DNA of 32,000 nt, taken from NCBI GenBank assembly GCA_039194325.1, contig JBCCWC010000035.1, positions 1 through 32,000 of the forward strand. The letters run 5' to 3'. Under the pieces are notes generated by a model. It did not search any database, was not told the origin of the DNA, and saw only the letters and a list, made by a program, of their open reading frames with translations. Shown one piece after another: positions 6,628-27,451 of the stretch (its first letter is position 1; the number at the start of each line of letters is the position of its first letter). The position numbers and the translations under genes were made by a program. The stretch is from Myxococcota bacterium (lineage in GTDB: Bacteria > Myxococcota_A > Polyangia > Nannocystales > Nannocystaceae).

Positions 6628-7269
6628 TCAGCTCGACGACTCGTCGTCCTGCTGGCGCTGGGCCAGCTTCTCGCGTAGCGAGCGGGCCCAGTTTTCCACG
6701 TCGTCCGCGGTGGTCTCGCGCAGCGCGACCGGGAATTGCTCGGCCTCGAGGATCTGCTCGCGCACCAGCCGACGCGCTCGGTTCAGGCGGCTCTTGATCG
6801 TACCGGAGGGCACTCCACACACCTGGGCGATCTCGTCGATCTTCATCTCTTCCCAGTAGTGAAGCTCGACGGCGATCTGCAGGTCGATCGGGATCTTGCG
6901 CAAGGCGGTAAGCACGAGCTTTTGCTCGTCCCTGCCCGCCACCACCACCGAGGGCGAACCCAGCACGTCGGCGATCGAGGCTTCGAGCGCTTCGACCTTC
7001 TTGCCCTTGCGCGCGTACTTGCGCAGGTGCATCAGCAGCTGGGTTCGGGCGATCGCCAGCAGGTAGGTCTTGAAGCTCGAGTCCCCTCGGAAGCGATGAG
7101 CCCCCTCGGCACACGCGAGCATCGTCTGCTGGACCAGATCCTCGACGCCATGGCTGAGCTTGCTACGAAAGAACCGAAACAACGTACGAAAGTGGCGGCG
7201 AAGCAGCGCGGACCCGGCCGCGTTGTCCCCCGCTCGCCACGCCTCCAGCAGTTCCATGTCCTCGTTCAC
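6628..7269 (-). CDS. ECF-type RNA polymerase sigma-70 family factor with a short acidic C-terminal extension
   Basis: The region 2 match is LLRRHFRTLFRFFRSKL..VEDLVQQTMLACAE. The region 4 helix-turn-helix match is ELHYWEEMKIDEIAQVCGVPSGTIKSRLNRARRLV. The start at 7269 is GTG, and ATG at 7257 is an alternative. The gene lies 113 nt downstream of the kinase gene on the same strand. Confidence 0.9.
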   Translation of the reverse strand: MNEDMELLEAWRAGDNAAGSALLRRHFRTLFRFFRSKLSHGVEDLVQQTMLACAEGAHRFRGDSSFKTYLLAIARTQLLMHLRKYARKGKKVEALEASIADVLGSPSVVVAGRDEQKLVLTALRKIPIDLQIAVELHYWEEMKIDEIAQVCGVPSGTIKSRLNRARRLVREQILEAEQFPVALRETTADDVENWARSLREKLAQRQQDDESSS

Positions 7270-7382: not shown

Positions 7383-10300
7383 CTAGGGACCGCGCGGCCC
7401 CGGGCCGTGGTCGAGGCAGAACAAGTTGCGATCGTGGCCGGCCACGAAGACCTCCTGGCGACCATCCCCGTCGACATCACCCACTGCGGGCGAGGCCTCG
7501 ATCTCCTCGCGCCCGGTGTCGAAGCGCCAGACCAGATCACCCCGCATGGCGTCCACCACGTGCAGCGAGCCGTCCTCGAACCCAGCGATCACCTCTCGCC
7601 ACCCGTCGCCGTCGAGATCGACGACCACCGGTGACCCTGCCCCGCCCGCCTGGTGCCCGTCGGGATCGACGAAGCGGTGGCGCCAGCGCACGGCCCCCTC
7701 GCCGTCGAGGCTCAGTAGCCCCCGGGTCCGGCTGCTGACGAAGATCTCGGGTCGACCGTCACGATCGACGTCGCTGACCTGCGGTCGAGCTCGCCGCGTG
7801 GCCACGCCGAGCCAGCGACCGCGCTCGCGACCGTCTGTGCCCTCGAGCACCACCAGCGGATCGTCGTCGTGGTGGGGAGTCACGAGGATCTGCCGGGTCC
7901 CGTCACCCCGTAGATCGGCCACCGTGGGCTCGAAGTTGAGGCGGGCCCCCACGTCGGCCACCCACTGCGACTGGCCCGTGGCCGACAGGCAGACGACCCG
8001 GCCGTCGAGCGTGGCCACCACCACCTCGACCTCTCCATCCCCGTCGACATCGCTGACATGGGGCGCCCCGAAGGAGCCCAACGAGCCCAACGAGGCGCTC
8101 CACTCCAGGCCGAGGGTCTGGGCATCGAGCACGTGGATCTCGCCGGGGTCTTGCCAGGTCACGATGATCACCTCGAGCTGCCCGTCGCCGTCGACGTCGG
8201 CCACCGTGGGGCTGGCGTAGCCGATCCCGGCGTCGAACGACCCTTGCAGCGTCGCGTCGGTGCCCGAGAAACGACGCAGGCCCTTCGATCCCACGGCCAG
8301 CAGATCGAAGCCCCGCTCGACCGGCAGCAAGGCGGGCGGGCGGATCACGGTCGGCGTGTCGCGGGACACGCTGGAGGCCTGCACTCGGCCCGTTCGGGCG
8401 TCGATGATCTCGAGCTGCTTGGCCTCGCCCAGCATGCCGAACAGCGCCACCTCGAGCGCGCCGTCGCCGTCGAGATCCTCGACCACCGGGGTCGCGCGGA
8501 CGGCATCGAGCGGGCGTCGATCCCAGCGGACCTTGGGCCCCACCACCACCGCGGGGCCTCGCGCCTCGAGCAATAGATCCACGAACCCGTCGGCGTTGGC
8601 GTCACGGCTGGCCTCGATCGTGCTGGCCGGGATCCGCAGGGGCACCGTGCCCAGGGGGCGCAGGCGAGTGTCGAAGGCCCGCAGCACCCCGTCGGCCGTG
8701 CCCAGCACCAGATCGTCACGCCCGTCGCCGTCCCAGTCGGCCAAGGCCACCGCCGAGCTGGGCGCTCGGGGGAGCACGTGGCGGGCGTAGGGCGTCCCGG
8801 TGATCGCATCGAGCAGCCCCAGGCACTCGGGCTCGCCGTCCATGCGACCGAGCGCCACCAGCGGTGCCGGCGCGATCATCAGCAGTCGAGCCCGTAGTCG
8901 AGCCGATGACGCGGTGGGAGTGGGTCGGTTCCAGATCGGACGGCCGCGGCGTCCCGAGACGAGCGCAAGCTCGGGCGCCTGGCCCCCGTGTAGCACCAGC
9001 AGATCGTCGGCGCCGTCGCCGTCGACATCTCCCAGCGTATGGCCCGGGCGTAGCACCGGGCGCGCACGCACGTCATCTCGCCAGCGCTCGTCCCCCTCCT
9101 CCCCGCCCAGAGCGACCACGGTCGCGCCTCGCTCGCGCGCCAGCAGCCCCACGAGCACGCCCTGACCCGGTCGCGGCTCGAGGGACGCGGCGACGACCCA
9201 CGGCAGCATCCGCTCGACCCGCGCCCACGCTTCGCGAAGCCAGCGCTCGTCCACCGCGCCGTCGACCGTTCGCGGGGCCACCGGCAAGGCGGTGGACCAG
9301 CGCAGCGCGCCATCGGGGCCGAGCCCGTAGACCCCGTCGAGCCCGGCCACCACGGGGGCGAGCGCGCCCGCCGGATCGCGGCGCACCGCGACCTCGACCG
9401 GCTCATCGGGCAGTAGCCCGACCCATCGCGCCTGCCCCGATGCCGTATAGGCCGTAAGCGCGCCGGGCCTCAGCCCGGCCACCCAAAGATCGGCGCCGGC
9501 GACCTCCGGCGGCGCCCGGCTGTCTCGCCGTGCTCCGCCGCCCTGCCGCGTCCTCCCCTCCCTCGGTGCGCATGCGATCGCACCGAGCCCCACGCGGGGC
9601 TCGGTGCCCGCCGGGACGGCGACCGTCCACCGCGGCGACGGCTTCCGCCCGCGGACCCGCCCGTCGTAGAGCAGCAGCTCGCGGCGCTCAAGGTCCAGCG
9701 ACAGCACGGCGATGTCACGAACCCCGTCGCCGTCGGTATCACACAGCCGATAGAGCGCCCGCTCGGGGGGCAGCCGGACCTGCGAGACCTCGCGATCGTT
9801 CCAGGGATCGTAGACCGTCAGCAGGTTGAAGCGGCGCTGCACCAGATCGTCGAGGCCGTCGCCGTTGGCGTCACCCACCCAGTAGGCCTCGAGCAGGGCG
9901 CCCGAGGCGGGCCGCGACCAGGCCAGGGCCTTGCGCAGCGCCACGAACCCGGCGTTGGTCTGGCCGGCCACCGCCGTCCACTCCATGCGCTCGTCCACGT
10001 ACCCCTCGTGGCGCAGCAGCAGCTCGTGGGGCCCGGTGTCGACCGCGAGCGACCGCAGTCGCGAGCCGTAGTCGCGGCCGTCGATCAGGATGTGACCCCC
10101 GGCGGGCTCGAGCTCCAGCTCGAACATGCCCTGCTCGTGCCGTAGCTCGACCGCGACCTCGTGCACCCCACCGCGCTGCACGTCGAGCACCGTCTGGGCC
10201 GGCTCGTGGTCGGGCGCGATCACCTCGACCCGATGCAGGCCCGCCGGCACCTCCCCCCGGCCCCCGGCCAGTTCCTGCTCGTCCACGTAGATCCGCACCC

Positions 10301-11555
10301 CGGGGACCGGCTTCCCGCCGGCGGTCACCTCCACCTGCACCTGGCCGGGGCGGGTGGCCAGCCAGCCCGCATAGCCCAGCGCGCCCACGGCCAGCGGCAC
10401 CGAGCTCCACCGCATCAGACGAGCCCGGCGGCGCGCGGGATCGGCCATCAGCGCCCGGAGCAGGTCCTCCATGCTGGCGAAGCGATCCGAGGGCTCGGGC
10501 GCCAGGCCCCGCATCACCACGCGATCGACCCACGCCGGCACCCGACGGTCGTCGGGCGCCGGGCGCACCCGGGCGGCGACCTTGCTGTCGAACAGCTCCC
10601 GCAGCGTGTGGCCGGCGTAGGCATGCTGCCCGTAGAGCGCCCGATAAAGCGACGTACAAAACGCGAACTGATCCGCCTTTTGGTCGGCGGGCTCCCCTCG
10701 ATGTTGCTCGGGCGCCATGTAGGCGGGCGTGCCCAGCAAGACCCCCGTGCGGGTGAGCTTGTCCATCGCCACCGAGTCCTCGACCGGCAGGCTCAGCAGC
10801 TCCGGGGGCGCGGTGGTCGGCGTGAGCGTGTCGGGCGGGACCGACGACGACGCGCCGGGGCTATAGGTCAGCGCCAGCCCGAAGTCGACCACCTTGATCC
10901 GGCTGTCGTCGCCTACCAGCACGTTGCCCGGCTTGAAGTCGCGATGCACGATCCCCGCGGCGTGAGCCGCGGCCAGCCCCTGCCCCGCGGCCAGGAACAC
11001 GTCGACCACCTCGCGCCAGCTCCGTGGGTGGTGCTCGAGCCAGGTGGCCAGGTCGTGGCCCTCGACCAGTTCCATCACGATGAAGATCCCGGCGTCCGGC
11101 CCCGCCCGGCCGGGCCCCCCCTCGCGAGTGCCCGGGGTCAGCTCGTCCGCACGGTAGGTGCCCACATCGTGCACCGCGATCACGTTGGGGTGGGACAGGC
11201 GAGCGATCGACTGGGCCTCGCGGACGAAGCGCGCGCGAGCCCGGGCCGCCGACTCACCCGGGCGCCCCGCCCGGAGCACCTTCACCGCCACCCGACGGGC
11301 CAGCTCGGGATCGTAGCCGTCGTAGACCACGCCCGTGCTTCCCGAGCCCAGCGTCCGCAGCAGCAGGTAGCGCGATAGCTGGAGCGGCTCGCGAGCACGG
11401 GCGAACAGGCTCGACTCGACCTGGGCCAGCGCTCGCTGCTCCTCGATCGCGTCGAATTCCAGGGCCCCGTCGATCGCGTGGCCGAGCATGTCGACCGTCT
11501 GGATCGTCGCGTCGGGCTCCGGCGTCGGCGCGTCGATCCGCGGTGGCTCCCGCAC
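7383..11555 (-). CDS. Membrane Ser/Thr protein kinase with PEGA-like and FG-GAP/VCBS (beta-propeller) extracytoplasmic repeats
   Basis: Hanks kinase motifs are GSGSTGVVY, VAVKVL, HRDFKPGN, DFGLA and GTPAYMAPE. A TM segment WSSVPLAVGALGYAGWLAT lies near aa 383-401. At least 12 D-x-D/N-G-D-G-x-x-[DE]-hydrophobic repeats follow (DVDGDGADDLLV, DWDGDGRDDLVL, DVDGDGQLEVII and others). The start at 11555 is GTG, and an in-frame ATG at 11489 is an alternative. Confidence 0.9.
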   Translation of the reverse strand: MREPPRIDAPTPEPDATIQTVDMLGHAIDGALEFDAIEEQRALAQVESSLFARAREPLQLSRYLLLRTLGSGSTGVVYDGYDPELARRVAVKVLRAGRPGESAARARARFVREAQSIARLSHPNVIAVHDVGTYRADELTPGTREGGPGRAGPDAGIFIVMELVEGHDLATWLEHHPRSWREVVDVFLAAGQGLAAAHAAGIVHRDFKPGNVLVGDDSRIKVVDFGLALTYSPGASSSVPPDTLTPTTAPPELLSLPVEDSVAMDKLTRTGVLLGTPAYMAPEQHRGEPADQKADQFAFCTSLYRALYGQHAYAGHTLRELFDSKVAARVRPAPDDRRVPAWVDRVVMRGLAPEPSDRFASMEDLLRALMADPARRRARLMRWSSVPLAVGALGYAGWLATRPGQVQVEVTAGGKPVPGVRIYVDEQELAGGRGEVPAGLHRVEVIAPDHEPAQTVLDVQRGGVHEVAVELRHEQGMFELELEPAGGHILIDGRDYGSRLRSLAVDTGPHELLLRHEGYVDERMEWTAVAGQTNAGFVALRKALAWSRPASGALLEAYWVGDANGDGLDDLVQRRFNLLTVYDPWNDREVSQVRLPPERALYRLCDTDGDGVRDIAVLSLDLERRELLLYDGRVRGRKPSPRWTVAVPAGTEPRVGLGAIACAPREGRTRQGGGARRDSRAPPEVAGADLWVAGLRPGALTAYTASGQARWVGLLPDEPVEVAVRRDPAGALAPVVAGLDGVYGLGPDGALRWSTALPVAPRTVDGAVDERWLREAWARVERMLPWVVAASLEPRPGQGVLVGLLARERGATVVALGGEEGDERWRDDVRARPVLRPGHTLGDVDGDGADDLLVLHGGQAPELALVSGRRGRPIWNRPTPTASSARLRARLLMIAPAPLVALGRMDGEPECLGLLDAITGTPYARHVLPRAPSSAVALADWDGDGRDDLVLGTADGVLRAFDTRLRPLGTVPLRIPASTIEASRDANADGFVDLLLEARGPAVVVGPKVRWDRRPLDAVRATPVVEDLDGDGALEVALFGMLGEAKQLEIIDARTGRVQASSVSRDTPTVIRPPALLPVERGFDLLAVGSKGLRRFSGTDATLQGSFDAGIGYASPTVADVDGDGQLEVIIVTWQDPGEIHVLDAQTLGLEWSASLGSLGSFGAPHVSDVDGDGEVEVVVATLDGRVVCLSATGQSQWVADVGARLNFEPTVADLRGDGTRQILVTPHHDDDPLVVLEGTDGRERGRWLGVATRRARPQVSDVDRDGRPEIFVSSRTRGLLSLDGEGAVRWRHRFVDPDGHQAGGAGSPVVVDLDGDGWREVIAGFEDGSLHVVDAMRGDLVWRFDTGREEIEASPAVGDVDGDGRQEVFVAGHDRNLFCLDHGPGPRGP

Positions 11556-11601
11556 ATGGCGAGTCTACGCGGTCCCGACCGGTGGCGGCTATGCTCAAGC
11601 C

Positions 11602-12717
11602 ATGGAGCCCCGACTGGACGCAGTGGTGGTGGGCGCGGGCGTCGTCGGCCTAGCGGTGGCCCGAGCCCTCGCACAGGCCGGGCGCGAGGTGGTGGTCATC
11701 GAGGCCGAGCGCTCGATGGGCCAGCACGCGTCTTCGCGCAACAGCGAGGTGCTCCACGCGGGGATCTACTACCCCCCCGGGAGCCTCAAGGCGCGGCTGT
11801 GCGTCACGGGCCGACGCGCGCTGGTGGAGTACTGTCGGCGACGCGGCGTGGCGCATCGGCTCGTGGGCAAGCTCATCGTGGCCACCCGGCCACACCACCG
11901 CGCCACCCTGGCGCGACTTCGGGCACGGGCACGGGCCAACGGGGTGGGCGACCTGCCGCTGCTCGAGGCCGCCGACGTCACCGCGATGGAGCCCCAGGTC
12001 CGCGCCCTGGCCGGGCTATGGTCGCCGGTGACCGGGATCATCGACGGGCACGGGCTGATGCGAGCGCTGTGGGCCGACGCCGAAGAGCACGGCGCCATGA
12101 TGGCCCTGGACACCCGCTTGGTGACCGCGGCGCCGAAGGATCGCGGGCTCGTGGTGCAAACCGGGGATCTGACCCTGCGCTGCGCACTGCTGGTCAACGC
12201 GGCGGGGCTCGGGGCGACGGGGGTGGCCGCGGCGATCCAGGGGCTGCCGGCCGGGGCAGTGCCGGTCGCTCGGCTGTGCAAGGGCAGCTACTTCTCGCTG
12301 CCAGGGATGCAGTTCTCGCACCTGGTCTATCCGGTACCCGACACGGCGAGCCTGGGGATCCACGTCACGCTCGATCTGGGAGGCGGCGTGCGGGTGGGGC
12401 CCGATCAGCAGTGGGTCGATCGCGTGGACTACGAGGTCGACCCCGGCCGGGCACCGGCCTTTGCCGCCGCGGTGGCACAGTATGTGCCGACGCTCGATCC
12501 GGCCGTGCTCGCGCCCGACTACGCCGGGATTCGTGCCAAGATCCACGGGCCCGGGCAGCGACCGCCCGATTTCGTGATCGCGGGGCCAGCCGAGCACGGG
12601 ATCGCAGGACTGTGCAACCTGCTGGGGATCGAGAGCCCCGGGCTGACTGCATGCCTGGCGATCGCACAGGAGGTGCTGCGAACGCTGGGGATCGAGCCGT
12701 CGGCGGGTGAGCCATGA
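11602..12717 (+). CDS. FAD-dependent oxidoreductase, L-2-hydroxyglutarate oxidase/dehydrogenase (LhgO-like, DAO family)
   Basis: DAVVVGAGVVGLAVARALAQAG, SSRNSEVLHAGIYYPPGSLKARLCV and GKLIVAT closely parallel E. coli LhgO blocks (NSGVIHAGVYYTPGSLKAQFC, GKMLVAT) from memory. The start is chosen at the ATG at 11602 inside ORF 11488..12717. Confidence 0.85.
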   Translation: MEPRLDAVVVGAGVVGLAVARALAQAGREVVVIEAERSMGQHASSRNSEVLHAGIYYPPGSLKARLCVTGRRALVEYCRRRGVAHRLVGKLIVATRPHHRATLARLRARARANGVGDLPLLEAADVTAMEPQVRALAGLWSPVTGIIDGHGLMRALWADAEEHGAMMALDTRLVTAAPKDRGLVVQTGDLTLRCALLVNAAGLGATGVAAAIQGLPAGAVPVARLCKGSYFSLPGMQFSHLVYPVPDTASLGIHVTLDLGGGVRVGPDQQWVDRVDYEVDPGRAPAFAAAVAQYVPTLDPAVLAPDYAGIRAKIHGPGQRPPDFVIAGPAEHGIAGLCNLLGIESPGLTACLAIAQEVLRTLGIEPSAGEP

Positions 12718-12891: not shown

Positions 12892-15690
12892 TCAGCACAC
12901 GCCGGGTTGACATTGATCGTTGACGCAGCAGTAGCCGCCGGGCCAGCCGAGGGCCTGGTCGCAGTGGGCGTTGAGGGTGCACTCGTTGGTGCACCCATTG
13001 CCGTTGGGCTGACAGACGAGTTGGCTGTCGGCACAGATCATCGACTCGGGTCCGGAGCAGGCGAAGACCGGCTCGCACCGGGCCTGCGACGCGTAGTGCT
13101 CGCAGAACATCTCGTCGTCACCCCAGTAGGGCGCTTGGCCGCAAGGACTGTCGCACTGCCACGAGGGCGGCCCTGCGTTGGTGTCCCAGCACGTGCCCTG
13201 GCCAACGCCAAAGTCTTCTCCCCAGCACGACATCGCCGGGTCCGAGACATTGAACGACACGCAATCGTCCTGTTCGCCGCAGGGGCAGCCGAGCAGCGTG
13301 TTGTCCACGCCGTCCGTGGCGTCGCAGCGTCGGCACACGCCCCATCCGTTGTCGTCGGCGCAGACTCGCGACTCACCGCCGACATTGGCACAGTAGTAGA
13401 GATCGCCCTGGTCGTCGCGATACGTGCCGTCGGGGTGAAACTCGCCGCCGTCCTCATTGTGCCGATCGAGCAGAGAGCCCGCGCCGCGATCGCTGGGCTG
13501 CGTGGGTCGGCAGGGGCCTCCGACGCAGTCACGATCTCCGTACAGCTGGGCGCAGGCGGCCGGCCCGACCGCCTCGCAGTTCTGGCGCTCGGCGGGGTTG
13601 AGACAGTTGGCGTAGCTGCCGGGCGAGTCGGTCGACGTCCCGCCGTTGCAGGTGGCGGTGCTGATCACGGTACACGAGGCCTCACACGACAGATCGCCCT
13701 GCGCAAAGCCATAGTCGCCGCAGTCGAGCCCCATGGGGAACAGGCCCGGCTCGCAGGCCTCGCCCGGGTCGAGGACCCCGTTGCCGCACATGTTGCACAG
13801 CGCGGTGTCGAAGCGACACTCCTCGTTGCAGCCCAAGAGCCCGCCGACGAAGCCGAAATCGGCGCACGTCAGCCCGTCCAGATCGTCGCCATCACAGCTC
13901 TCCGGCGCCTCGATCTCGTCGTTGCCGCAGTATTTGGCGTTGTCGACCGCTTCGATGCTGTCGATGAACATCGCGCCGAGGGACTCTCCCATCCCATCAT
14001 CGACCCGGATCTCGATCTTCTGGATGTGCTCGAGGTCCACCCCCTCGAAATCGGCCAGTGGCACGCGGATCGTCTGCGCGTGCGGCTCGGGACCGACGGG
14101 GCCCATGTCACAATCGGGATGGGAGAGATCGACGTAGGCGCTGGCCAGCACCTCGTGCGACTCGGTCACCCCCAGAAATTCCGACTCGACGTAGATCGCC
14201 AGATCGAACGACGGGGGGGGATCGACGCACGGAGTCACGAGATCCGCCAAGATTCCCGCCCGAAGGCTCAGCACGTCGTAGCGCTGCAGATCGAGATCGT
14301 TGATGAACTCCAGCGTGGCCTCCGTCGAGGACCCGTTCCACTGCATCGCCAGGGCCGTCGTCCTTCGGCTCCCGCCGGGATTGGCGTAGAGATCCACGTC
14401 CGTCGCCCCCTGGAGCGGCAGCAGCGAGCCGGGAATCCGGGGGTCCCAGTCCACCTCGAAGTCGTGGATGACAAAGCGACCCCCTCCGCCCTTGGTGCCC
14501 TCTACGTACTCGGTGAATACCGTCGGCCGCTCGAACCCGAGATCGCACGCGGCGGGCCACGCCACGCAAAAGGGCGGCTTCCGGTTACCTTGAAAGTGGT
14601 TCGAGAACTCGTGTTCACCCCCGACGTTCCAGCGCAAGAATGCCGTGATGTAGGCGTTGGCGATGGTGGTCGCGCGCTCGCTGGGGTTGTTCATCGCGCC
14701 TCCCCAGTGGCCGTGGGGCACATCGAACCCCCACACCATGCTCTTGCGCATGTAGGGCCCGGGAACGGGGAACTCCTGAGACGCCATGTCGTAGAGCCCC
14801 AGGCTCTCCCCGTCGATGTCGTGGTCGCGGGATCCCTGGAGGACCAAGAATGCATCGGTCGCGTCGTCCGACAGGTAGGTGAGCTGCTTGAGCGCTTCTT
14901 TGTCGGCGGCGTTCAGCGGGACGCCGTCGGCATCGATGAAGCCACATCCGCTATCGTTGTCGATACACCCCTTCGAGGGGGCGATGCCGATCACCGCGGG
15001 TACGTCGACCGATAGATCGATCGCGTGGGTGCTGGCCACCAGCCGATTGGCGACCATGACCGCGCCCTCGCCCCCGCGGCTGTGCCCGGCGAGCACGACC
15101 GTCGTCGGATCCACGTGCGGGCCCAGGTCCGTGTCGTCGATGATGTGCCGCAGCACGCACTGCATCATCTCCGCGCGGCGAGAGACGCCCGCCGCGAACG
15201 GTGTGCCCACGGACACCGCGACCACGCCGAGACTGGCAAAGTGCTCGAGGATGCCGTCGTAGCGGTCGTAGTGCATGCCATTGCCGGGACCGAGCAGCAG
15301 CAGGGGCAGCGCGCCGGGGGGCCACGCTCCACCGTCATCGGGCCGAAACACATCGGCGACGATGGTGCCGGGGCTGCCGTTTTCGAAGGCTTCGTCCACC
15401 GCATGTGGCAGATCCCCGCACAGCTCGACGTCTTGCTCGGTGGGGCCGATGATGAACGAGTGCAGGGTGTTGACGACAGAAAAGGGCCCCGGGCAAGACG
15501 GCGAGTCACCGGGACACCCGGCCCCGAGGGCTCGTGGGGCAGCCGCGAGATCGCCGTCCGTGCTCGGTAACGGCAGTGGCTCGCCCTCGAAGGTCTCCGC
15601 GTCGATGCTACTGCTCGTGCAGGCGCCGGGTCCTGCGGCGAGGACAGTCATGATGGCAATGGTGGGAATAGTGGAGAAGCGTGGCTTCAT
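12892..15690 (-). CDS. Secreted/lipoprotein alpha/beta hydrolase (chlorophyllase/PAF-acetylhydrolase-like, GHSRGG nucleophile elbow) fused to Myxococcus-type Cys-rich repeats and a very Cys-rich C-terminal region
   Basis: The signal peptide is MKPRFSTIPTIAIMTVLAAGPGAC. The hydrolase block is VVLAGHSRGGEGAV. Two repeats are present: CGNDEIEAPESCDGDDLDGLTCADFGFVGGLLGCNEECRFDTALC and CGNGVLDPGEACEP...C. The last roughly 290 aa are extremely Cys-rich and end in ...CQPGVC. The start is set at the ATG at 15690; a GTG at 15711 is the alternative. Confidence 0.8.
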   Translation of the reverse strand: MKPRFSTIPTIAIMTVLAAGPGACTSSSIDAETFEGEPLPLPSTDGDLAAAPRALGAGCPGDSPSCPGPFSVVNTLHSFIIGPTEQDVELCGDLPHAVDEAFENGSPGTIVADVFRPDDGGAWPPGALPLLLLGPGNGMHYDRYDGILEHFASLGVVAVSVGTPFAAGVSRRAEMMQCVLRHIIDDTDLGPHVDPTTVVLAGHSRGGEGAVMVANRLVASTHAIDLSVDVPAVIGIAPSKGCIDNDSGCGFIDADGVPLNAADKEALKQLTYLSDDATDAFLVLQGSRDHDIDGESLGLYDMASQEFPVPGPYMRKSMVWGFDVPHGHWGGAMNNPSERATTIANAYITAFLRWNVGGEHEFSNHFQGNRKPPFCVAWPAACDLGFERPTVFTEYVEGTKGGGGRFVIHDFEVDWDPRIPGSLLPLQGATDVDLYANPGGSRRTTALAMQWNGSSTEATLEFINDLDLQRYDVLSLRAGILADLVTPCVDPPPSFDLAIYVESEFLGVTESHEVLASAYVDLSHPDCDMGPVGPEPHAQTIRVPLADFEGVDLEHIQKIEIRVDDGMGESLGAMFIDSIEAVDNAKYCGNDEIEAPESCDGDDLDGLTCADFGFVGGLLGCNEECRFDTALCNMCGNGVLDPGEACEPGLFPMGLDCGDYGFAQGDLSCEASCTVISTATCNGGTSTDSPGSYANCLNPAERQNCEAVGPAACAQLYGDRDCVGGPCRPTQPSDRGAGSLLDRHNEDGGEFHPDGTYRDDQGDLYYCANVGGESRVCADDNGWGVCRRCDATDGVDNTLLGCPCGEQDDCVSFNVSDPAMSCWGEDFGVGQGTCWDTNAGPPSWQCDSPCGQAPYWGDDEMFCEHYASQARCEPVFACSGPESMICADSQLVCQPNGNGCTNECTLNAHCDQALGWPGGYCCVNDQCQPGVC

Positions 15691-15864
15691 GGACCCGTCT
15701 AGTTCCCGCACCGGGCCTACTGGATCTCGAAGTCGTTGGGCTCCCCGGGCGTGAGCATCGCCCGCGTCGTGATCCGATCGTACGGCCGCGGGAACTAAAG
15801 GAGTGAGTCCTCACCCGAGCGAGCACTGACGCCGTTGCCACCCATTCGCTCCACCCCCGGATCC

Positions 15865-16503
15865 TCAGCGACGACGCTGGTGAGCCCGAAGCTTGTCCAC
15901 GAAGCGAGCCAGCTCCGGCACGGTCTTCAGCCAACGAGCATCGGTAACCTTGGAGCGCAGAGGCCGAGCAAGCTCCTCATAGCGTCGGGATCGCTTGTCC
16001 GGCACCCGTACGCCCCGCTTCTTACCCGTCCTCGCATCGAGCAACCCGTGGTCGAGCAACGCTGTGGCGGGATCCTTGAGCACCTCGGCAGTCTTGACCC
16101 TGGTGTGAGCGGCCAAGAGCCAGGTCTCGATCTCCTCTCGCGGTAGCGTGATCACGACTGCGTCGGGAACGGCCTCACCCATCCATCCTTTGACATGGTC
16201 ACACAAGTCATCGAGTTCGTCAGAGTCGACCTGTCGCGCCACCGAAACGAGGCGACGAATGCTCGCGTCGACCTGAACGACGACGAGGTCGAGAGTCGAC
16301 ATGGCCACCGCGCCAGACTGCAAGAACGAGCGCACCGCCTGCCAGCCCGTCGCGGGCTTGCGGATCCCAGGAGGCCGGGACAGGGCGTCGAAATCGGGCT
16401 GCAGCAGGGAGAACGTCGGATGGCGGGTATGGAGGATCTGGGCGACGATCTCACGGAGGACCGGGAAATCAGTGCTCCCTTCACAGATGATCCCGACACG
16501 CAT
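15865..16503 (-). CDS. Small TOPRIM-like protein (DUF4276 / RloB-like), putative nuclease partner of the upstream ATPase
   Basis: 212 aa. The N-terminus is MRVGIICEGSTDFPVLREIV (strand-CEG-xTD, like TOPRIM motif 1). Later blocks are LDLVVVQVDAS and LPREEIETWLLAAH (like the E-x-W-L-L block of DUF4276/RloB as I recall it). GGGGGAG lies immediately upstream of the ATG at 16503. The gene starts 22 nt after the ATPase stop. Confidence 0.7.
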   Translation of the reverse strand: MRVGIICEGSTDFPVLREIVAQILHTRHPTFSLLQPDFDALSRPPGIRKPATGWQAVRSFLQSGAVAMSTLDLVVVQVDASIRRLVSVARQVDSDELDDLCDHVKGWMGEAVPDAVVITLPREEIETWLLAAHTRVKTAEVLKDPATALLDHGLLDARTGKKRGVRVPDKRSRRYEELARPLRSKVTDARWLKTVPELARFVDKLRAHQRRR

Positions 16504-16525
16504 CACTCCCCCGAACGAGCTCGGA

Positions 16526-17767
16526 TTACAGCGGAGGAACCGCCCCCAGCAGCCCTCGGGTCCACATCTGAGAGATCGTCAGACCACTGACCTGTGCGCG
16601 CTCGATGGCCTCGGAGTGGGCGATCCGGGTGATCTTGGTGTGACCGCCCGCGGTACGTTCGACGGCCAGCAGGCGCACTCGCTCGTCGGCCAGTTCCAGG
16701 GAGTCGAGCACGAGCGGGTTGTGGGTCGTGACGATGATCTGGCGTCGGTGACGTCGAGCAAGGCGGGCCAAGGTGGCGAAGAGCTTTCGCGCCAGACGAG
16801 GGTGCAGAGCATGGCCTACGTTTTCGATCGCAAAGAACCGAGGTGAGCGTGGATGTAGGACCATCGCGAGGGCGAACAACACGTAAAGAGCCCCCTCGCT
16901 GGCGTCATAGGCCGATAGCTGGTTGCGATCGTCGCGGAGGAAGCGATCCGAGAAGCGCACCACCTCCGACGTCACGGGGATCGACGGCGAGATCAGATCG
17001 GGCGTAGGCGCAGCCACGGCGATACTCGACGCCCACTCGACCAGGGACTCGAACTCGGCGTGGAGCCGCTCGGCCTGCTTCGAGGACTTGAGAAACGCAA
17101 CAGCCTCGGCCAGGCGTCCGCCCCCGAGACCAAGTGGATCTCGCTGGAGGAGATCAGGCTGGGTTCCCCGCAGGATCGAGGTCTGCGGATCGTAGATCGC
17201 AAAGCCCTTGAGGCTCCCGAGCATGAGGCTGACCCCCGGCGACTTACGCTCTCTGAGCGAGAGCCCTCCACGGGACAGACCGATGAAGGGGTCCAAGTCC
17301 GAGAGGGTCGTCTTTTCATCCGGGGCGTGCCAGATGTTGCCGCCACGGGGGCTGCGGCTGAGCAGCTTGGACTCACGGCGGCCGATCATCTCCGATTGGA
17401 ACCTCCACGGCGAGGCCGACGTCTCCTGGGGATTGTCCAGCCCCACCCGGTAGTACGCCCCGGCCCGAGAGCTCGCCCGCAAAGAGATCACGCGACGGAG
17501 CTTCTTCAGATCCGCAAAAGCGCTCTTGTAGAGCTTGGGTACCCCGGGACGAACCCCTCGACGCAAGAGTTCGGTATCATCGACACGACCGTCGGCTGCC
17601 GCCCCGAGGACCCCGATCGCCTCGAGCACCGCCGTCTTGCCCGAGCCATTGGCGCCGATCAAGACGTTGAGCTGACCCAGCTCGATCCGCTGCTCCACGA
17701 GCGACTTGAACCCCTTGATCTCCAACGACTCGATGAAGCCGGCATGCGCTAACTCGGAGCGTGGCAT
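16526..17767 (-). CDS. Soluble SMC/RecF-like ABC ATPase (AAA_21/AAA_15-type), OLD/AriA/RloA-like
   Basis: N-terminus FIESLEIKGFKSL...LNVLIGANGSGKTAVLEAI carries the Walker A motif. Further motifs are a signature-like LSAYDASEGALYVL, a Walker-B-like RFFAIENVGHALHP and an H-loop IVTTHNP. No TM segments are visible. The start is uncertain among ATG 17767, ATG 17782 and GTG 17809. Confidence 0.8.
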   Translation of the reverse strand: MPRSELAHAGFIESLEIKGFKSLVEQRIELGQLNVLIGANGSGKTAVLEAIGVLGAAADGRVDDTELLRRGVRPGVPKLYKSAFADLKKLRRVISLRASSRAGAYYRVGLDNPQETSASPWRFQSEMIGRRESKLLSRSPRGGNIWHAPDEKTTLSDLDPFIGLSRGGLSLRERKSPGVSLMLGSLKGFAIYDPQTSILRGTQPDLLQRDPLGLGGGRLAEAVAFLKSSKQAERLHAEFESLVEWASSIAVAAPTPDLISPSIPVTSEVVRFSDRFLRDDRNQLSAYDASEGALYVLFALAMVLHPRSPRFFAIENVGHALHPRLARKLFATLARLARRHRRQIIVTTHNPLVLDSLELADERVRLLAVERTAGGHTKITRIAHSEAIERAQVSGLTISQMWTRGLLGAVPPL

Positions 17768-17843
17768 CGTGGAGCGGGCCATCGTCGCAGACCACGGTGA
17801 CGGTAGCACGGGGCTGCACCCTACTGTGCCGCATGCCCGGCGG

Positions 17844-17880
17844 CTCGGCTCGACTCGGCTCGACTCGGCTCGACTCGGCC
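17844..17880. repeat. 10-bp tandem repeat cgactcggct x3.5 upstream of the ATPase gene
   Basis: ctcggct cgactcggct cgactcggct cgactcggcc was read directly. It sits in the roughly 290-bp spacer between the tRNA-Ala 3' end (18098) and the ATPase start region. Confidence 0.85.
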
Positions 17881-18064
17881 ACGATGTAGCCCGTTCCTCG
17901 AGTCGACCTCCGTTGAGCGTGACACCATGAGGCGAACCAAGCGTGCATCGAGCTCCGATAGGAGAGCGACGCGCACCACGGATCCCCCGTAGGTCGACCG
18001 GTCACGAGCCCAACGCCGACCAAGACGACCGGCTGTGCCCGCTGTGTACCCACGGGGCGAGCCC

Positions 18065-18093
18065 AAAAAACAAACGGCCCCGTCAGGGGCCGT
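18065..18093 (-). terminator. Rho-independent terminator of tRNA-Ala
   Basis: On the minus strand: ACGGCCCC-TGAC-GGGGCCGT (perfect 8-bp GC-rich stem, 4-nt loop) followed by TTGTTTTTT. It begins 4 nt after the tRNA 3' end. Confidence 0.85.
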
Positions 18094-18097
18094 TGGG

Positions 18098-18170
18098 TGG
18101 AGGATACCGGGATCGAACCGGTGACTTTCGGCTTGCAAAGCCGACGCTCTCCCAGCTGAGCTAATCCCCC
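18098..18170 (-). tRNA. tRNA-Ala (anticodon UGC)
   Basis: The minus-strand sequence GGGGGAT TA GCTC AGCTGGGA GAGC G TCGGC TTTGCAA GCCGA AAGTC ACCGG TTCGATC CCGGT ATCCTCC A folds as a 73-nt cloverleaf. It has the G3:U70 alanine identity pair, a GTTCGATC T-loop and anticodon TGC. CCA is not encoded. Confidence 0.95.
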
Positions 18171-24174: not shown

Positions 24175-26868
24175 TCAGCCCGAGGCGACCTCCCCCAACG
24201 CCGCCTCGAGCGCCCCCCGCTGCGTGGCCGACTTGGGCGCCACCAGAAGGTCGAGCGAGCAGGGATCGGCGTCATCGGGGCACGCCACCGAACGCAGACC
24301 ACTGCAGGCGCCGTCGACCAGCGACGACTGACCGTCGGGCAACGCCTCGCGCAAGCCAAGCAGCGTCTGCGCATCGGACGGCGCCCGGGTGACCAACCAG
24401 CGCAGATACACGAGGGTCAGCGCGAGCGGAAGCTCCTCGGGAGGCACCGGATCGGCAAACAATTCGCGACGAAGCTCGGCAACGAGCAGCGCGCGCGACG
24501 ATGGATGGAGAGGCTCGTGAAGCAACGCCTCGGCCCAGGCCAGTAGATAGCGCCGACTGACCGGCTCGAGCTGGTAGGCGCGATAGAAGTCGGCCGCCGC
24601 GCGATCGTAGCGCTGCCGGTCCCGGTAGATCACGGCCCGGCGCGCCAACGCGTCGGCCCCCCCCACGCACCCCGCCGGATCGAACGACGCGAGCCGAGCG
24701 AGCAACGCCCGCTCCGATCCGCTCCCCGAGTCCAGGTGAGGCACCAACGGGATCGCGTTGACCAGCGCGCATGCGTCCGCTGGGCGGTAGTCCTCGAGCG
24801 CCGCGAGGACCAACGACGCCGCCTCGGCGGGCCGCTGCCCGGCGATACACTCCGCCAGCGACAGCCGACCCAAGACGGCGAGGATCGGAACGGACTCATC
24901 GCCAAGGCGGCGGAGGACCGGCTCGATGCGCCCACAAATCGCCGGGTGCTCCAGCTCTCGACTGGCCACCAGATACCGCGCCACGTCGCACAGTCGCCGG
25001 TCCTCGGCGACCTCGTCTCGAGCGCCCTCGCATCGGGCCAACCGACGCAGCGCAGCGATCGGCTCGAGGGTGACGTCCCGCGCATGCAGGCGACGCAAGA
25101 GCGCCGCGATCGTGGCCCAGCGATACCCCACGTGCTCGACGTCGAGCACGGGCACGTCGAACCGGTCGTGCTCCGCGGCCCGGGGAAGCACCACCAGCAA
25201 GGGAGCCAGCGACTCGAAGCGTTCCAGATCGCTCAGCTCGAGCGTCGGCAGAAGCTCGAACAAGGGCAGCGATGCCAACGACGACTCGGGCACGATCTGG
25301 GCCCGCGCCTGGTCACCCACATGGATCGCCATGCTCGCTCCGCTCCCCAGGGCCCACGGGGGATAGCGGGTGGGCCCTGCGTTCCACCGTGAGACCCGAC
25401 GGCAACGAACCCGGGGCTCGGCGACCTCGCGCAGGGCGGCGCAAAGCGCCTCGTAACGCGTCACCAGCTCACCGGATGCCCACATCGGAGCGGTGACGAG
25501 GATCCCCCCCGACTCGGCAAAGACGGCAGGCACGCCCCACGGCCACAGCAGCGCGAACACCAGCCCGAGTCCAAGCCCGAGTCCAAGCCCGAGTCCAAGC
25601 CTGAGTCCAGGCCTGAGTCTAGCCGCGACCGACACGGCCAGCGCGCTCGACCCCATCCACCAGGCCCGCCGCGCTCGCCCACGGCCCCGAACGCCCCCCC
25701 CCAAAAGAGCACGAGCCTCGGCTTCGGTCCCACCGCTAGCGTTCGGCTCCCGCGGGGTCGTCCCCGAACGAACGACCGATGACGAGCGCTCGGGTCGCGT
25801 CGCACGAAAGACCTCGAGCATCTGGTCCGCCGTGTTCGGACGCTGGGCTGGCTCTCGGTCGATCGCCCGCCGCACCAGCTCGCGAACCGCCGAGGGTATG
25901 TCGGGTCGATCGATCCGAGGCGGTCGCGTGGTCGCACCGATGACCTGCTGCAAGAAGCCCACGAGATCGGTGCCCTCGTCCACCGGGTAGGGCACACGCC
26001 CCGTGAGCATCTGATAGAGCACCACGCCGACCGAATAGAGGTCGGTCGACACCGAGGCATCCACACCGGGCGAGGCCAGCAGCTCCGGCGCCATATAGAG
26101 CGGCGTGCCCATGATCGCATCGCGGGCGGTCAGTCGCATCGAAGTCTTGGCCAGACCGAAGTCCAGCATCTTGACTCCCCCCCCGGCCCGGTCGGCGAGC
26201 ACGAAGATGTTGTCCGGCTTGATGTCACGATGCACGATCCCGTGCGCGTGGATCTCGGCCACCCCCCTTAGGATCTCCACCGCGAGGCGCTCGAACTGTG
26301 CGCGGGCCATCGGTCGCCCCGCCTCGAGCCGCTCCCCCAGCGCCTCCCCGTCGAGCCGCTCCATCGCAAAGAAGGGCAGCCCCTGGTGCTCCCCATAGTC
26401 GTGCACCTGCACCAGGTGATCGCCCCGCAGCTGGGCCATCACCCGGGCCTCCTGCACGAAGCGCTGGCGCAATTGCTCGTCGTCGGCGAGGTGCGGGTGC
26501 AGGAACTTCAGCGCATCGTCTCGTTCGAGCGCTCGGTGCCGAGCGGTAAAGACCAGCCCAAAGCTGCCCTTGCCGACCAGTTCCTGCAGCTCCCAAGTCC
26601 CTTTGACGATCTGACCCACCCGCGGGGCGACCAGGGAAGGCGAGTTGGAAGGCGATTTGGAAGGTGAGGCGGAACGTGACGCGGTCACAGCCGATCGCTT
26701 ATCGGTGGCGACACCGTCGTCGATCGCGGACGGCTGGCTGCCCCCCGCCACTCCGTCTCGGATCGCTCCCAAGAGTCGCTCGAGGTGCTTACCCGCGGTA
26801 TCGTCGAGCTCGCCGTGTCTACGCCTCATCGGTAAGGCGGGGATGATAGCCGACCCCCGCATGCCCAT
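24175..26868 (-). CDS. Membrane Ser/Thr protein kinase with a large helical (TPR-like?) C-terminal domain
   Basis: Kinase motifs are GKGSFGLVF, ALKFL, HRDIKPDN, DFGLAK and GTPLYMAPE. A (GL)n/TM region follows, then a roughly 480-aa Leu/Ala/Arg-rich domain. The start is uncertain among ATG 26868, 26862 and 26829. The ORF is open to 27240, but that part is not protein-like. Confidence 0.85.
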   Translation of the reverse strand: MGMRGSAIIPALPMRRRHGELDDTAGKHLERLLGAIRDGVAGGSQPSAIDDGVATDKRSAVTASRSASPSKSPSNSPSLVAPRVGQIVKGTWELQELVGKGSFGLVFTARHRALERDDALKFLHPHLADDEQLRQRFVQEARVMAQLRGDHLVQVHDYGEHQGLPFFAMERLDGEALGERLEAGRPMARAQFERLAVEILRGVAEIHAHGIVHRDIKPDNIFVLADRAGGGVKMLDFGLAKTSMRLTARDAIMGTPLYMAPELLASPGVDASVSTDLYSVGVVLYQMLTGRVPYPVDEGTDLVGFLQQVIGATTRPPRIDRPDIPSAVRELVRRAIDREPAQRPNTADQMLEVFRATRPERSSSVVRSGTTPREPNASGGTEAEARALLGGGVRGRGRARRAWWMGSSALAVSVAARLRPGLRLGLGLGLGLGLGLVFALLWPWGVPAVFAESGGILVTAPMWASGELVTRYEALCAALREVAEPRVRCRRVSRWNAGPTRYPPWALGSGASMAIHVGDQARAQIVPESSLASLPLFELLPTLELSDLERFESLAPLLVVLPRAAEHDRFDVPVLDVEHVGYRWATIAALLRRLHARDVTLEPIAALRRLARCEGARDEVAEDRRLCDVARYLVASRELEHPAICGRIEPVLRRLGDESVPILAVLGRLSLAECIAGQRPAEAASLVLAALEDYRPADACALVNAIPLVPHLDSGSGSERALLARLASFDPAGCVGGADALARRAVIYRDRQRYDRAAADFYRAYQLEPVSRRYLLAWAEALLHEPLHPSSRALLVAELRRELFADPVPPEELPLALTLVYLRWLVTRAPSDAQTLLGLREALPDGQSSLVDGACSGLRSVACPDDADPCSLDLLVAPKSATQRGALEAALGEVASG
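25564..25623. repeat. 12-bp tandem repeat cccgagtccaag x5 (3 perfect + 2 degenerate), in frame in the kinase gene (encodes LGLGLGLGLGLG on the minus strand)
   Basis: Read directly from the sequence. It lies at the predicted juxtamembrane/TM segment LRLGLGLGLGLGLGLVFALLWPW. Confidence 0.9.
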
Positions 26869-27451
26869 GGACCCGCACGAGCCGATCGAACGGCGATCTG
26901 CCGACCATCGACACAACCCGTTCGGGTCATTCACGCCACTATCGGAAGTCCGTCGCCCATCACGAGGCTCACCCCGACGATCGACCCACGGCGAATGTTC
27001 GGGAAAACGAACCAACACCGAGCCGGTGAAGACCACTCCTCGGCCAACACCGAGGCACCACCGATCGCCAAGCACCGCGGCGGTGCTCGACCACCGGATC
27101 CACATGAACCGGCCGACGCGAACCCGTCGACGCGGGCATGCCCATCGAAACGCGAACCCGTTGCGCCAACGAGCACGACGATCGGCAGGTCCGAGCTCGA
27201 CCACCCCGAACCGAATTTGCCTTCCGGCCGCGGTCGTCAAGTCGTTCGTTCATCGTCGCACTGCCCCAAAATGCCCCAAAACCTCGATTCCTGGCTGCTA
27301 CGATCAAGCTCAGGCAATCCCTCACGGCAGCGCCCGCAAGGCGATGCCCGTGGGAGGGCTACGAAATGAGCGGTTGCGGTTGCGATTCGGTCAGCGAACG
27401 GACCACCATAGGGCCTCGTGTTGGACTGCAACAACCGATAGGCCAAGGACC

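Follow-up and report, generated by a model that had tools for sequence, protein, structure and literature searches.

The PDC-M31 cassette and its affiliation

The window analysed here comprises the first 32,000 nucleotides (nt) of contig JBCCWC010000035.1 from a Myxococcota bacterium (assembly GCA_039194325.1). Its minus strand holds a cassette of two genes, an ATPase gene (gene A) and, downstream of it, a gene for a small protein (gene B). By sequence, the locus is a divergent Myxococcota-clade member of PDC-M31, a candidate system of PADLOC that was catalogued computationally. The protein encoded by gene B shares 100% identity with that of locus tag AAGF11_16140 in a Myxococcota metagenome-assembled genome.

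The layout proposed in the initial annotation of this window, two co-directional genes with a GGGGGAG motif in their 22-nt gap, situated between the terminator of a tRNA-Ala gene and an exoprotein gene, was confirmed (Table 1). The stop codon of gene A (TAA) ends at position 16526. In homologous loci the two genes overlap slightly or lie up to about 55 nt apart, so that genes A and B form an operon, and their translation may be coupled. For gene B the start is supported by the homologues, all of which begin with MRVGI. The true start of gene A is uncertain within 14 codons, as the public gene call lies between a GTG at 17809, which opens the maximal open reading frame (ORF; 16526–17809, 427 residues), and a further in-frame ATG at 17767, the start that had been annotated initially.

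The affiliation is carried by both proteins. The product of gene A aligned with the hidden Markov model (HMM) of PDC-M31A over model positions 2–394 of 395 (E-value 1e-128, 428 bits), at an E-value some 100 orders of magnitude below those obtained with HEC-01A, AriA, PtuA, GajA and Old. Together with a full-length match to Pfam AAA_21 at 4e-27, this places its family assignment far beyond chance. The product of gene B was matched by the PDC-M31B models in its N-terminal half (1.8e-18) and in its C-terminal half (4.4e-15). A word-indexed search for its relatives yielded 34 close homologues, and a profile search among 1.84 billion cluster representatives yielded 1,138 sequences at E-values of at most 0.001, 370 of them at 1e-10 or below. 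For all residue and family counts given for gene B, 82 diverse relatives were aligned and scanned against the family libraries; every one of them matched the PDC-M31B models (best 4.8e-71), as did the family consensus (9e-53).

PDC-M31 belongs to a set of 145 phage defence candidates that were predicted by guilt-by-embedding; in its case the prediction derived from occurrence inside BREX, DISARM or type I restriction-modification (RM) loci (Payne et al. 2024, bioRxiv 10.1101/2024.01.29.577857). The supplementary table of that study lists it as cassette CAS_00126 (FAM_00005>>FAM_00304, 102 instances) with the entry 'Assign as candidate PDC-M31'; the ATPase family FAM_00005 was assigned with other partners to HEC-01, PDC-M07 and PDC-M29 (Payne et al. 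2024). The window pair has the gene order, adjacency and sizes of PDC-M31, both proteins match its models, and the loss of the catalytic Walker-B glutamate described below is common to the canonical members, with E-N in the window and D-N, D-S or E-G elsewhere. It differs from canonical members in a D-A-S motif in place of D-x-D in gene B and in its position outside an RM or BREX locus.

Table 1 Positions of the cassette and of surrounding features in the window
Feature	Position	Strand	Remarks
Gene A, ABC ATPase, PDC-M31A family (Pfam AAA_21/AAA_15/SMC_N)	16526–17782	minus	418 residues; public gene call, ATG at 17782
Gene B, PDC-M31B family, DUF4276-like	15865–16503	minus	212 residues from ATG
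A–B spacer	16504–16525	minus	22 nt; GGGGGAG at 16506–16512, 2 nt upstream of the gene B ATG
Terminator-like hairpin, weak	15801–15816	minus	stem of 6 base pairs, T-poor tail; 49 nt past the stop of gene B
Upstream spacer, tRNA terminator to gene A	17783–18072	minus	290 nt
Tandem repeat of 10 nt (CGACTCGGCT-like)	17841–17879		about 4 copies; within the upstream spacer
tRNA-Ala intrinsic terminator, strong	18073–18094	minus	stem of 9 base pairs and T-run; context, outside the system
tRNA-Ala(TGC)	18096–18170	minus	context, outside the system
Exoprotein gene, secreted-looking	12892–15711	minus	939 residues; downstream of gene B
Ser/Thr protein kinase gene, large	7383–11555	minus	
Ser/Thr protein kinase gene, large	24175–27240	minus	
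ECF (extracytoplasmic function) sigma factor gene	6628–7269	minus	

Gene A and its Walker B motif

Besides AAA_21, the Pfam domains AAA_15 and SMC_N matched the product of gene A. None of the NCBIfam models reached its cut-off; those of recF, recN and Rad50 matched weakly at the N-terminus, in the Walker A region only. The protein carries a Walker A motif (GANGSGK49T), an ABC signature (S295-E-G, within SEGALYVL), a Walker B motif (FFAIE320, followed by N321) and an H-loop (TTH354NP), as well as the motif FFAIENVGHALHP. Residues G43, N45, G46, G48, K49, S295-E-G and H354 are invariant among its relatives. An AlphaFold model was obtained with a predicted local distance difference test score (pLDDT) of 94.2 and a predicted template modelling score of 0.93. 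Its nearest solved folds in a Foldseek search were the heads of PtuA (from Septu and retron type I-A), SMC, Rad50, RecN and the Thermus OLD protein, with E-values of 1e-11 to 1e-13 and template modelling (TM) scores of 0.4–0.5; for PtuA, SMC and Rad50 the Foldseek probability was 1.00. The model thus depicts gene A as a soluble, compact ABC ATPase head of the SMC/Rad50/PtuA/OLD type, in which a predicted beta-rich insert replaces the coiled coil. This agrees with the SMC/RecF-like ABC ATPase class that had been proposed for it.

In PtuA, OLD, AriA, Rad50 and SMC proteins, the catalytic glutamate follows the Walker-B acidic residue. HMMER alignments to PtuA (VLIDEIDLHLHP) and TsOLD (IEEPEMYLHP) place E320 of gene A at this acidic residue and N321 at the position of the catalytic glutamate (codons at 16821–16826 of the window). 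Among 64 relatives of gene A, position 321 is occupied by Asn (59), Gly (3) or His (2) and by Glu in none, and canonical PDC-M31A proteins show D-N, D-S or E-G at positions 320 and 321. Across the PDC-M31A family, Glu is never seen at the catalytic position, which holds Asn, Ser, Gly or His instead. Position 323 is a glycine in the window protein; 11 of the 64 relatives also have Gly there, 52 have Asp. ABC ATPases with a Glu-to-Gln exchange at the catalytic position bind ATP and engage without hydrolysing it. In view of this behaviour and of the family-wide loss of the glutamate, PDC-M31A proteins are likely to act as a slow or non-hydrolysing ATP-binding latch or switch rather than as a fast hydrolase. 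The family-wide loss also lends itself, as an experiment of nature, to asking whether nucleases of this kind can be gated by ATP binding alone.

Gene B and its putative metal site

The motifs MRVGIICEGSTD, VVVQVDAS and EEIETWLLAAH are present in gene B, so that all motifs quoted in the initial annotation were recovered in the two genes. The protein had been regarded there as DUF4276- or RloB-like. Its match to Pfam DUF4276 (PF14103) amounts to 15.0 bits (E-value 0.029) and does not reach the gathering threshold of 30.2 bits; the family consensus aligned over positions 1–192 of 192 with 23.9 bits (5.6e-5), still under the threshold of Pfam. Among the relatives, 12 of 82 matched DUF4276 at an E-value of at most 0.01 (best 1.2e-6) and two matched RloB. 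A further 15 of the 82 matched one HEC-01B model, fewer matched four others, and a single one matched an RT-Toprim model. No phage protein family of PHROGs matched gene B. By these sequence comparisons, gene B is a remote relative of DUF4276 and not a member by the rule of Pfam; the proposed kinship is supported as a remote one.

DUF4276 and RloB have been placed in the Toprim superfamily, with a glutamate on the first strand–helix loop and a DxD motif after strand 3 (PMC12065111). The AlphaFold model of gene B (pLDDT 91.8) shows the succession beta1 (2–6)-alpha-beta2 (30–33)-alpha-beta3 (73–77)-alpha-beta4 (116–119)-alpha and then a helical C-terminal region at about 140–212. The order of these elements along the chain is that of a TOPRIM domain, a three-layer alpha/beta fold with the sheet order 2-1-3-4. 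In this model, E8 and G9 directly follow beta1 and D79 directly follows beta3. Five residues, E8, D12, D79, S81 and E126, form the putative metal site. E8, G9, D79 and W128 are invariant in 82 of 82 relatives, D12 is found in 81 and an acidic residue (E/D126) in 79, and the acidic ligands expected of such a nuclease are accordingly conserved. In BpOLD, the metal ligands are E400, E404, D455, D457 and E508, the last of these on the helix that follows the Toprim core (PMC6755086); by spacing and position they correspond to E8, D12, D79, residue 81 and E126 of gene B. When the family profile was compared by hhalign with P2 Old, the sole match was the TOPRIM glutamate motif (LLVEGKTETNVL against IICEGSTDFPVL, E-value 0.056), a motif-level match between a profile and a single sequence; a search with the TOPRIM of P2 Old had given five near-identical fragments, and tblastn against plasmids gave none. 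Among the predicted viral structures of BFVD, the match with the best TM score was an RloB-like protein (TM 0.46, probability 0.87, E-value 0.095). Gene B thus probably belongs to the TOPRIM superfamily, as judged from remote homology and motif placement, with a fold that we infer from both, and it may encode a metal-dependent nuclease with an OLD-type two-metal site.

The window copy departs from its family at residue 81 of gene B (D79-A-S81, codons at 16261–16269), where 66 of the 82 relatives have Asp and 14 have Ser, the latter being shared by the window protein and its nearest clade. The locus might accordingly be degenerate or repurposed, in which case gene B would be an adaptor without catalytic function or the system would be inactive here. 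The rarity of Ser81, the minority state of Gly323 within the ENVG Walker B of gene A and the modest scores of gene B, which matches PDC-M31B in two halves only, would agree with this. We nonetheless consider such a degeneration quite unlikely. Both ORFs are intact and of full length, and many members of the D-A-S clade keep E8, D12, D79 and E126, which points to purifying selection. Ser81 need not inactivate the site either, since D457 of BpOLD contacts metal A via water only and the single mutant D457A had no discernible effect (PMC6755086). N321, for its part, is a family-wide trait and no lesion of the window copy.

Distribution and genomic neighbourhoods

Using HMMs of both families, gene A followed by gene B, adjacent and on the same strand, was found in 12 of 12 distinct loci. 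Besides the window itself, they comprise Paraliomyxa, two species of Chondromyces (C. apiculatus and C. crocatus), Sorangium, Polyangium aurulentum, four metagenomic contigs, a conjugative plasmid of Enterobacter hormaechei and a phage-labelled gut contig. The genes flanking the pair differ in each of them, so that it is no housekeeping locus of fixed synteny; the pair is, from these comparisons, a mobile and sporadically distributed two-gene cassette. Identities to the window proteins decrease from Chondromyces apiculatus (A 59%, B 42%) and Sorangium (50%, 45%) to the Enterobacter plasmid (41%, 23%). The broadly parallel order of divergence fits a co-inheritance of both genes, with gene B evolving faster. 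The canonical pairs score far higher against PDC-M31A and PDC-M31B, with 4e-184 and 3e-92 for the Enterobacter plasmid and 1e-157 and 9e-108 for the phage-labelled contig.

Defence genes directly adjoin the pair at several of the 12 loci. In plasmid pE5_001 of E. hormaechei (NZ_CP042572.1, 96893–114071), a canonical PDC-M31 pair is flanked by traI/dsbA on one side and by a complete CBASS-like cluster on the other. The cluster consists of an SMODS cyclase (1e-166), a SAVED-endonuclease (2.5e-207), an E1-like ThiF protein and a JAB protein, and is accompanied by a tyrosine recombinase. In its gene content, this region of the conjugative plasmid amounts to a small island of defence genes. Type III RM-like genes adjoin the pair at locus L006, and in Paraliomyxa the adjoining gene encodes a KAP NTPase that resembles PifA, QatA and PDC-S20. 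At locus L009, a HerA-like gene and a DDE transposase lie near the pair, and gene A (9023–9993) is truncated or frameshifted. Decay is also seen in Polyangium aurulentum, where gene B is frameshifted and split across two reading frames (11222–11902).

These neighbourhoods bear on two alternative roles. RecF, an ABC ATPase, and RecR, a TOPRIM protein, share an equivalent domain logic, and a housekeeping pair for DNA repair or recombination could be imagined on this basis, as the fold of gene A resembles the heads of SMC, Rad50 and RecN and its N-terminus weakly matches the recF, recN and Rad50 models. These NCBIfam matches, however, lie far under the cut-offs. Moreover, in a scan of 185,579 species genomes with two short peptide patterns of gene B, which sees only pattern-bearing copies, two loci were confirmed. 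The synteny is not conserved, the pair occurs on a plasmid beside CBASS, and the catalytic acidic residues of gene B are conserved. A RecF/RecR-like function was rejected on distribution and is highly improbable. The second alternative is a toxin–antitoxin (TA)-like addiction or stabilisation module, with gene B as toxic nuclease and gene A as its neutraliser, whose main role would be the retention of itself or of a mobile element. Its presence on conjugative and mobilisable plasmids and its sporadic decay are in line with such a module; TOPRIM_OLD toxins neutralised by AAA-ATPases have been validated as TA pairs (PMC10440598), and PARIS, too, shows the behaviour of a type II TA system (PMC13064643). 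Most copies of the cassette are nevertheless chromosomal and lie between ordinary genes, with no mobile element to stabilise, and TA behaviour and defence by abortive infection are compatible with each other. Retention as the main role appears unlikely to us.

Two neighbourhoods showed further features. In Sorangium sp. So ce1389 (CP150364.1, 4176–7850), a cluster for RNA repair and ribosome rescue (RtcR-RtcB-PrfH-like, with an RF-1 domain) lies just upstream of the pair; the cluster is of note as TOPRIM effectors of the PARIS type cleave tRNA, though this single occurrence may be a coincidence. In the unverified 'Bacteriophage sp.' gut contig (MT837299.1, 483–4256), the pair is preceded by a gene for a protein of 1257 residues with HD-CE and HATPase_c_3 (MORC-like) domains, and this in turn by one for a helix-turn-helix protein. 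The protein of 1257 residues had no match in PADLOC and may be another defence-type gene.

Relation to other ABC-ATPase and TOPRIM systems

Split pairs of an ABC ATPase with a TOPRIM protein form a large, well-recognised but only partly understood immune class that includes PARIS, AbiL, RloAB, MADS3-4 and HEC-01. PDC-M31 is a further branch of this class with the status of a candidate, and our finding extends this catalogued candidate rather than describing a new kind of system.

HEC-01 shares the ATPase superfamily (FAM_00005) with PDC-M31 and its partner is also TOPRIM-like. The window proteins match HEC-01A (3.7e-30) and HEC-01B (9e-4) far more weakly than PDC-M31, and the partner of HEC-01 belongs to a different protein family; both systems were kept apart by the curators. 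AbiL (AbiLi/AbiLii), RloA/RloB and MAD3/MAD4 of MADS are likewise split pairs of an ABC ATPase and an RloB- or DUF4276-type TOPRIM protein, linked to defence or RM. Gene A matched AbiLi at 2e-16 and mad3 at 3e-19, whereas the partner models of AbiL, RloAB and MADS did not match gene B of the window. The closest solved structures to gene A, the PtuA proteins of Septu and retron type I-A (E-value 4e-13, TM 0.42–0.45), pair with an HNH nuclease, PtuB; they carry a DE Walker B, are larger and have a different insert.

PARIS is composed, as is the cassette, of two genes, an AAA_15/21 ABC ATPase and then a separate TOPRIM-type nuclease, and the AriA model matched gene A at 1.3e-26. The 50 best structural neighbours of gene A in Foldseek did not include AriA, and neither PADLOC nor Pfam gave an AriB or DUF4435 match to gene B at E-values up to 1. 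AriA further possesses the catalytic Walker-B glutamate, E393, and a measurable ATPase activity, which is abolished in the E393A mutant (PMC11464382); PDC-M31A has an asparagine at this position. Membership in PARIS was rejected on account of the missing AriB/DUF4435 match of gene B and of the missing Walker-B glutamate of gene A; the pair, labelled PARIS-like in the initial annotation, is not PARIS. Proteins of the OLD family (P2 Old, TsOLD, BpOLD and GajA of Gabija) resemble gene A in their ABC head, both by profile (6p74 at 2e-11) and by fold, and in gene B an E-G-x-T-[DE] motif, a DxD and an acidic residue on a helix recall the two-metal site of OLD. In these proteins, ATPase and TOPRIM are fused and the Walker B reads EE, whereas the window has split genes and a Walker B with E-N, and the Pfam model of the OLD-like TOPRIM did not match gene B. 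Its two ORFs, divided by a stop codon and a spacer of 22 nt, lack the defining feature of OLD, ATPase and TOPRIM in one polypeptide, and the cassette was rejected as a member of OLD classes 1–3.

Proposed function

The locus is best explained, and with fair probability in our view, as a divergent PDC-M31 operon in which an ABC ATPase and an OLD-like TOPRIM nuclease would follow a PARIS-like anti-phage logic. The mechanism is modelled on the precedent of solved ABC-ATPase/TOPRIM systems, PARIS especially, where AriA scaffolds and sequesters AriB until the phage protein Ocr is recognised in an ATP-dependent manner and AriB is released (PMC11464382); the toxicity of PARIS is attributed there to tRNA degradation. 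From such precedents we infer a nuclease activity, an A–B complex, a trigger, a substrate and a defence phenotype. Oligomers of ATP-bound gene A protein would hold or regulate gene B protein, and a phage-derived cue sensed by the former would release or activate the latter. The gene B protein might then cut nucleic acid; its target would be tRNA or another RNA, as for AriB, or else DNA, as for OLD and GajA. Such cutting would halt the replication of the phage, probably at a cost to the growth of the host.

Several observations weigh against this explanation. The gene B protein of the window reaches only 15 bits with DUF4276, as against a threshold of 30.2, and its model found nothing significant in a Foldseek search against the PDB: the best E-value was 0.017, TM scores were below 0.3 and the top 50 contained no TOPRIM protein. 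The best matches were generic three-layer alpha/beta folds (flavodoxin-, TIR- and PurE-like), and sequence-profile searches against the PDB gave nothing meaningful. The TOPRIM-like nature suggested in the initial annotation is backed by remote homology and by the placement of E8, D12, D79 and E126 but not by structural neighbours in the PDB. Ser in place of the second Asp of DxD in the window clade means that this copy of gene B could be catalytically weakened, and the same could apply to gene A with N321 and G323 both non-acidic. About half of the chromosomal loci, the window included, lack defence or mobile genes nearby. HEC-01, the sister candidate, gave no protection in its original test (Payne et al. 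2024); in favour of the explanation, one cold-seep homologue of HEC-01 protected Escherichia coli (PMC12881386). Finally, no experimental study of PDC-M31 was found, and none of the papers in the library searched names it in the main text. The pair can in this sense be called uncharacterised, as had been proposed, but as a subtype it is already catalogued in PADLOC. In the parts open to computational testing the initial interpretation was supported, with corrections to its view of the subtype, the PARIS label, the standing of the fold and the acquired islet.

A more specific reading, which we regard as rather doubtful, sees in PDC-M31 a mechanistically distinct branch of ABC-ATPase/TOPRIM systems. 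Its ATPase would have lost the Walker-B glutamate for good, and gene A would either serve an OLD-like two-metal nuclease as a latch, staying bound to ATP without hydrolysis, or sense the cellular ATP level for it, with D-x-S as a working myxobacterial variant of the metal site. Such a latch would contrast with the ATPases of PARIS, OLD and Septu, which depend on ATP turnover.

If the family defends, the PARIS-like operon proposed here would be a defence system in the Myxococcota. To our knowledge, phage defence has been little studied in this phylum.

Base composition and surroundings of the cassette

The GC content at third codon positions (GC3) is 0.79 in gene A and 0.75 in gene B, versus 0.80–0.91 in nine neighbouring genes. 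In windows of 200 codons, the cassette values of 0.755–0.825 fall within the lowest 2–14% of the flank windows (mean 0.870, standard deviation 0.048), and one native-looking kinase gene of the flanks has a GC3 of 0.797. The dip is real but moderate, less than the clear difference noted initially. No direct, att-like repetition of the 3' end of the tRNA was found in the window, and a scan of its 18 other ORFs revealed no integrase, no transposase and no further gene for defence or mobility, none of these ORFs having been compared with a defence-gene library. Given the modest dip and the missing integrase and att-like repeat, the view of the cassette as an islet acquired at the tRNA is weak.

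The 290-nt spacer upstream of gene A presumably holds its promoter; a promoter scan of this region gave no sigma-70-like promoter. The tandem repeat within the spacer may represent an element of a promoter or operator, or else debris left by slippage. Downstream of gene B, the weak hairpin may mark the end of the operon, with terminator-like sites of this type being found twice versus 1.3 expected by chance. Apart from the tRNA, the Rfam scan gave no RNA family. The secreted-looking neighbour of 939 residues has a signal-like N-terminus, a weak match to chlorophyllases and alpha/beta-hydrolases (8e-6) and a long Cys-rich C-terminal region. Large Ser/Thr protein kinases are typical of Myxococcota, and of the two encoded in the window, one has PEGA and FG-GAP/beta-propeller repeats and the other TPR.

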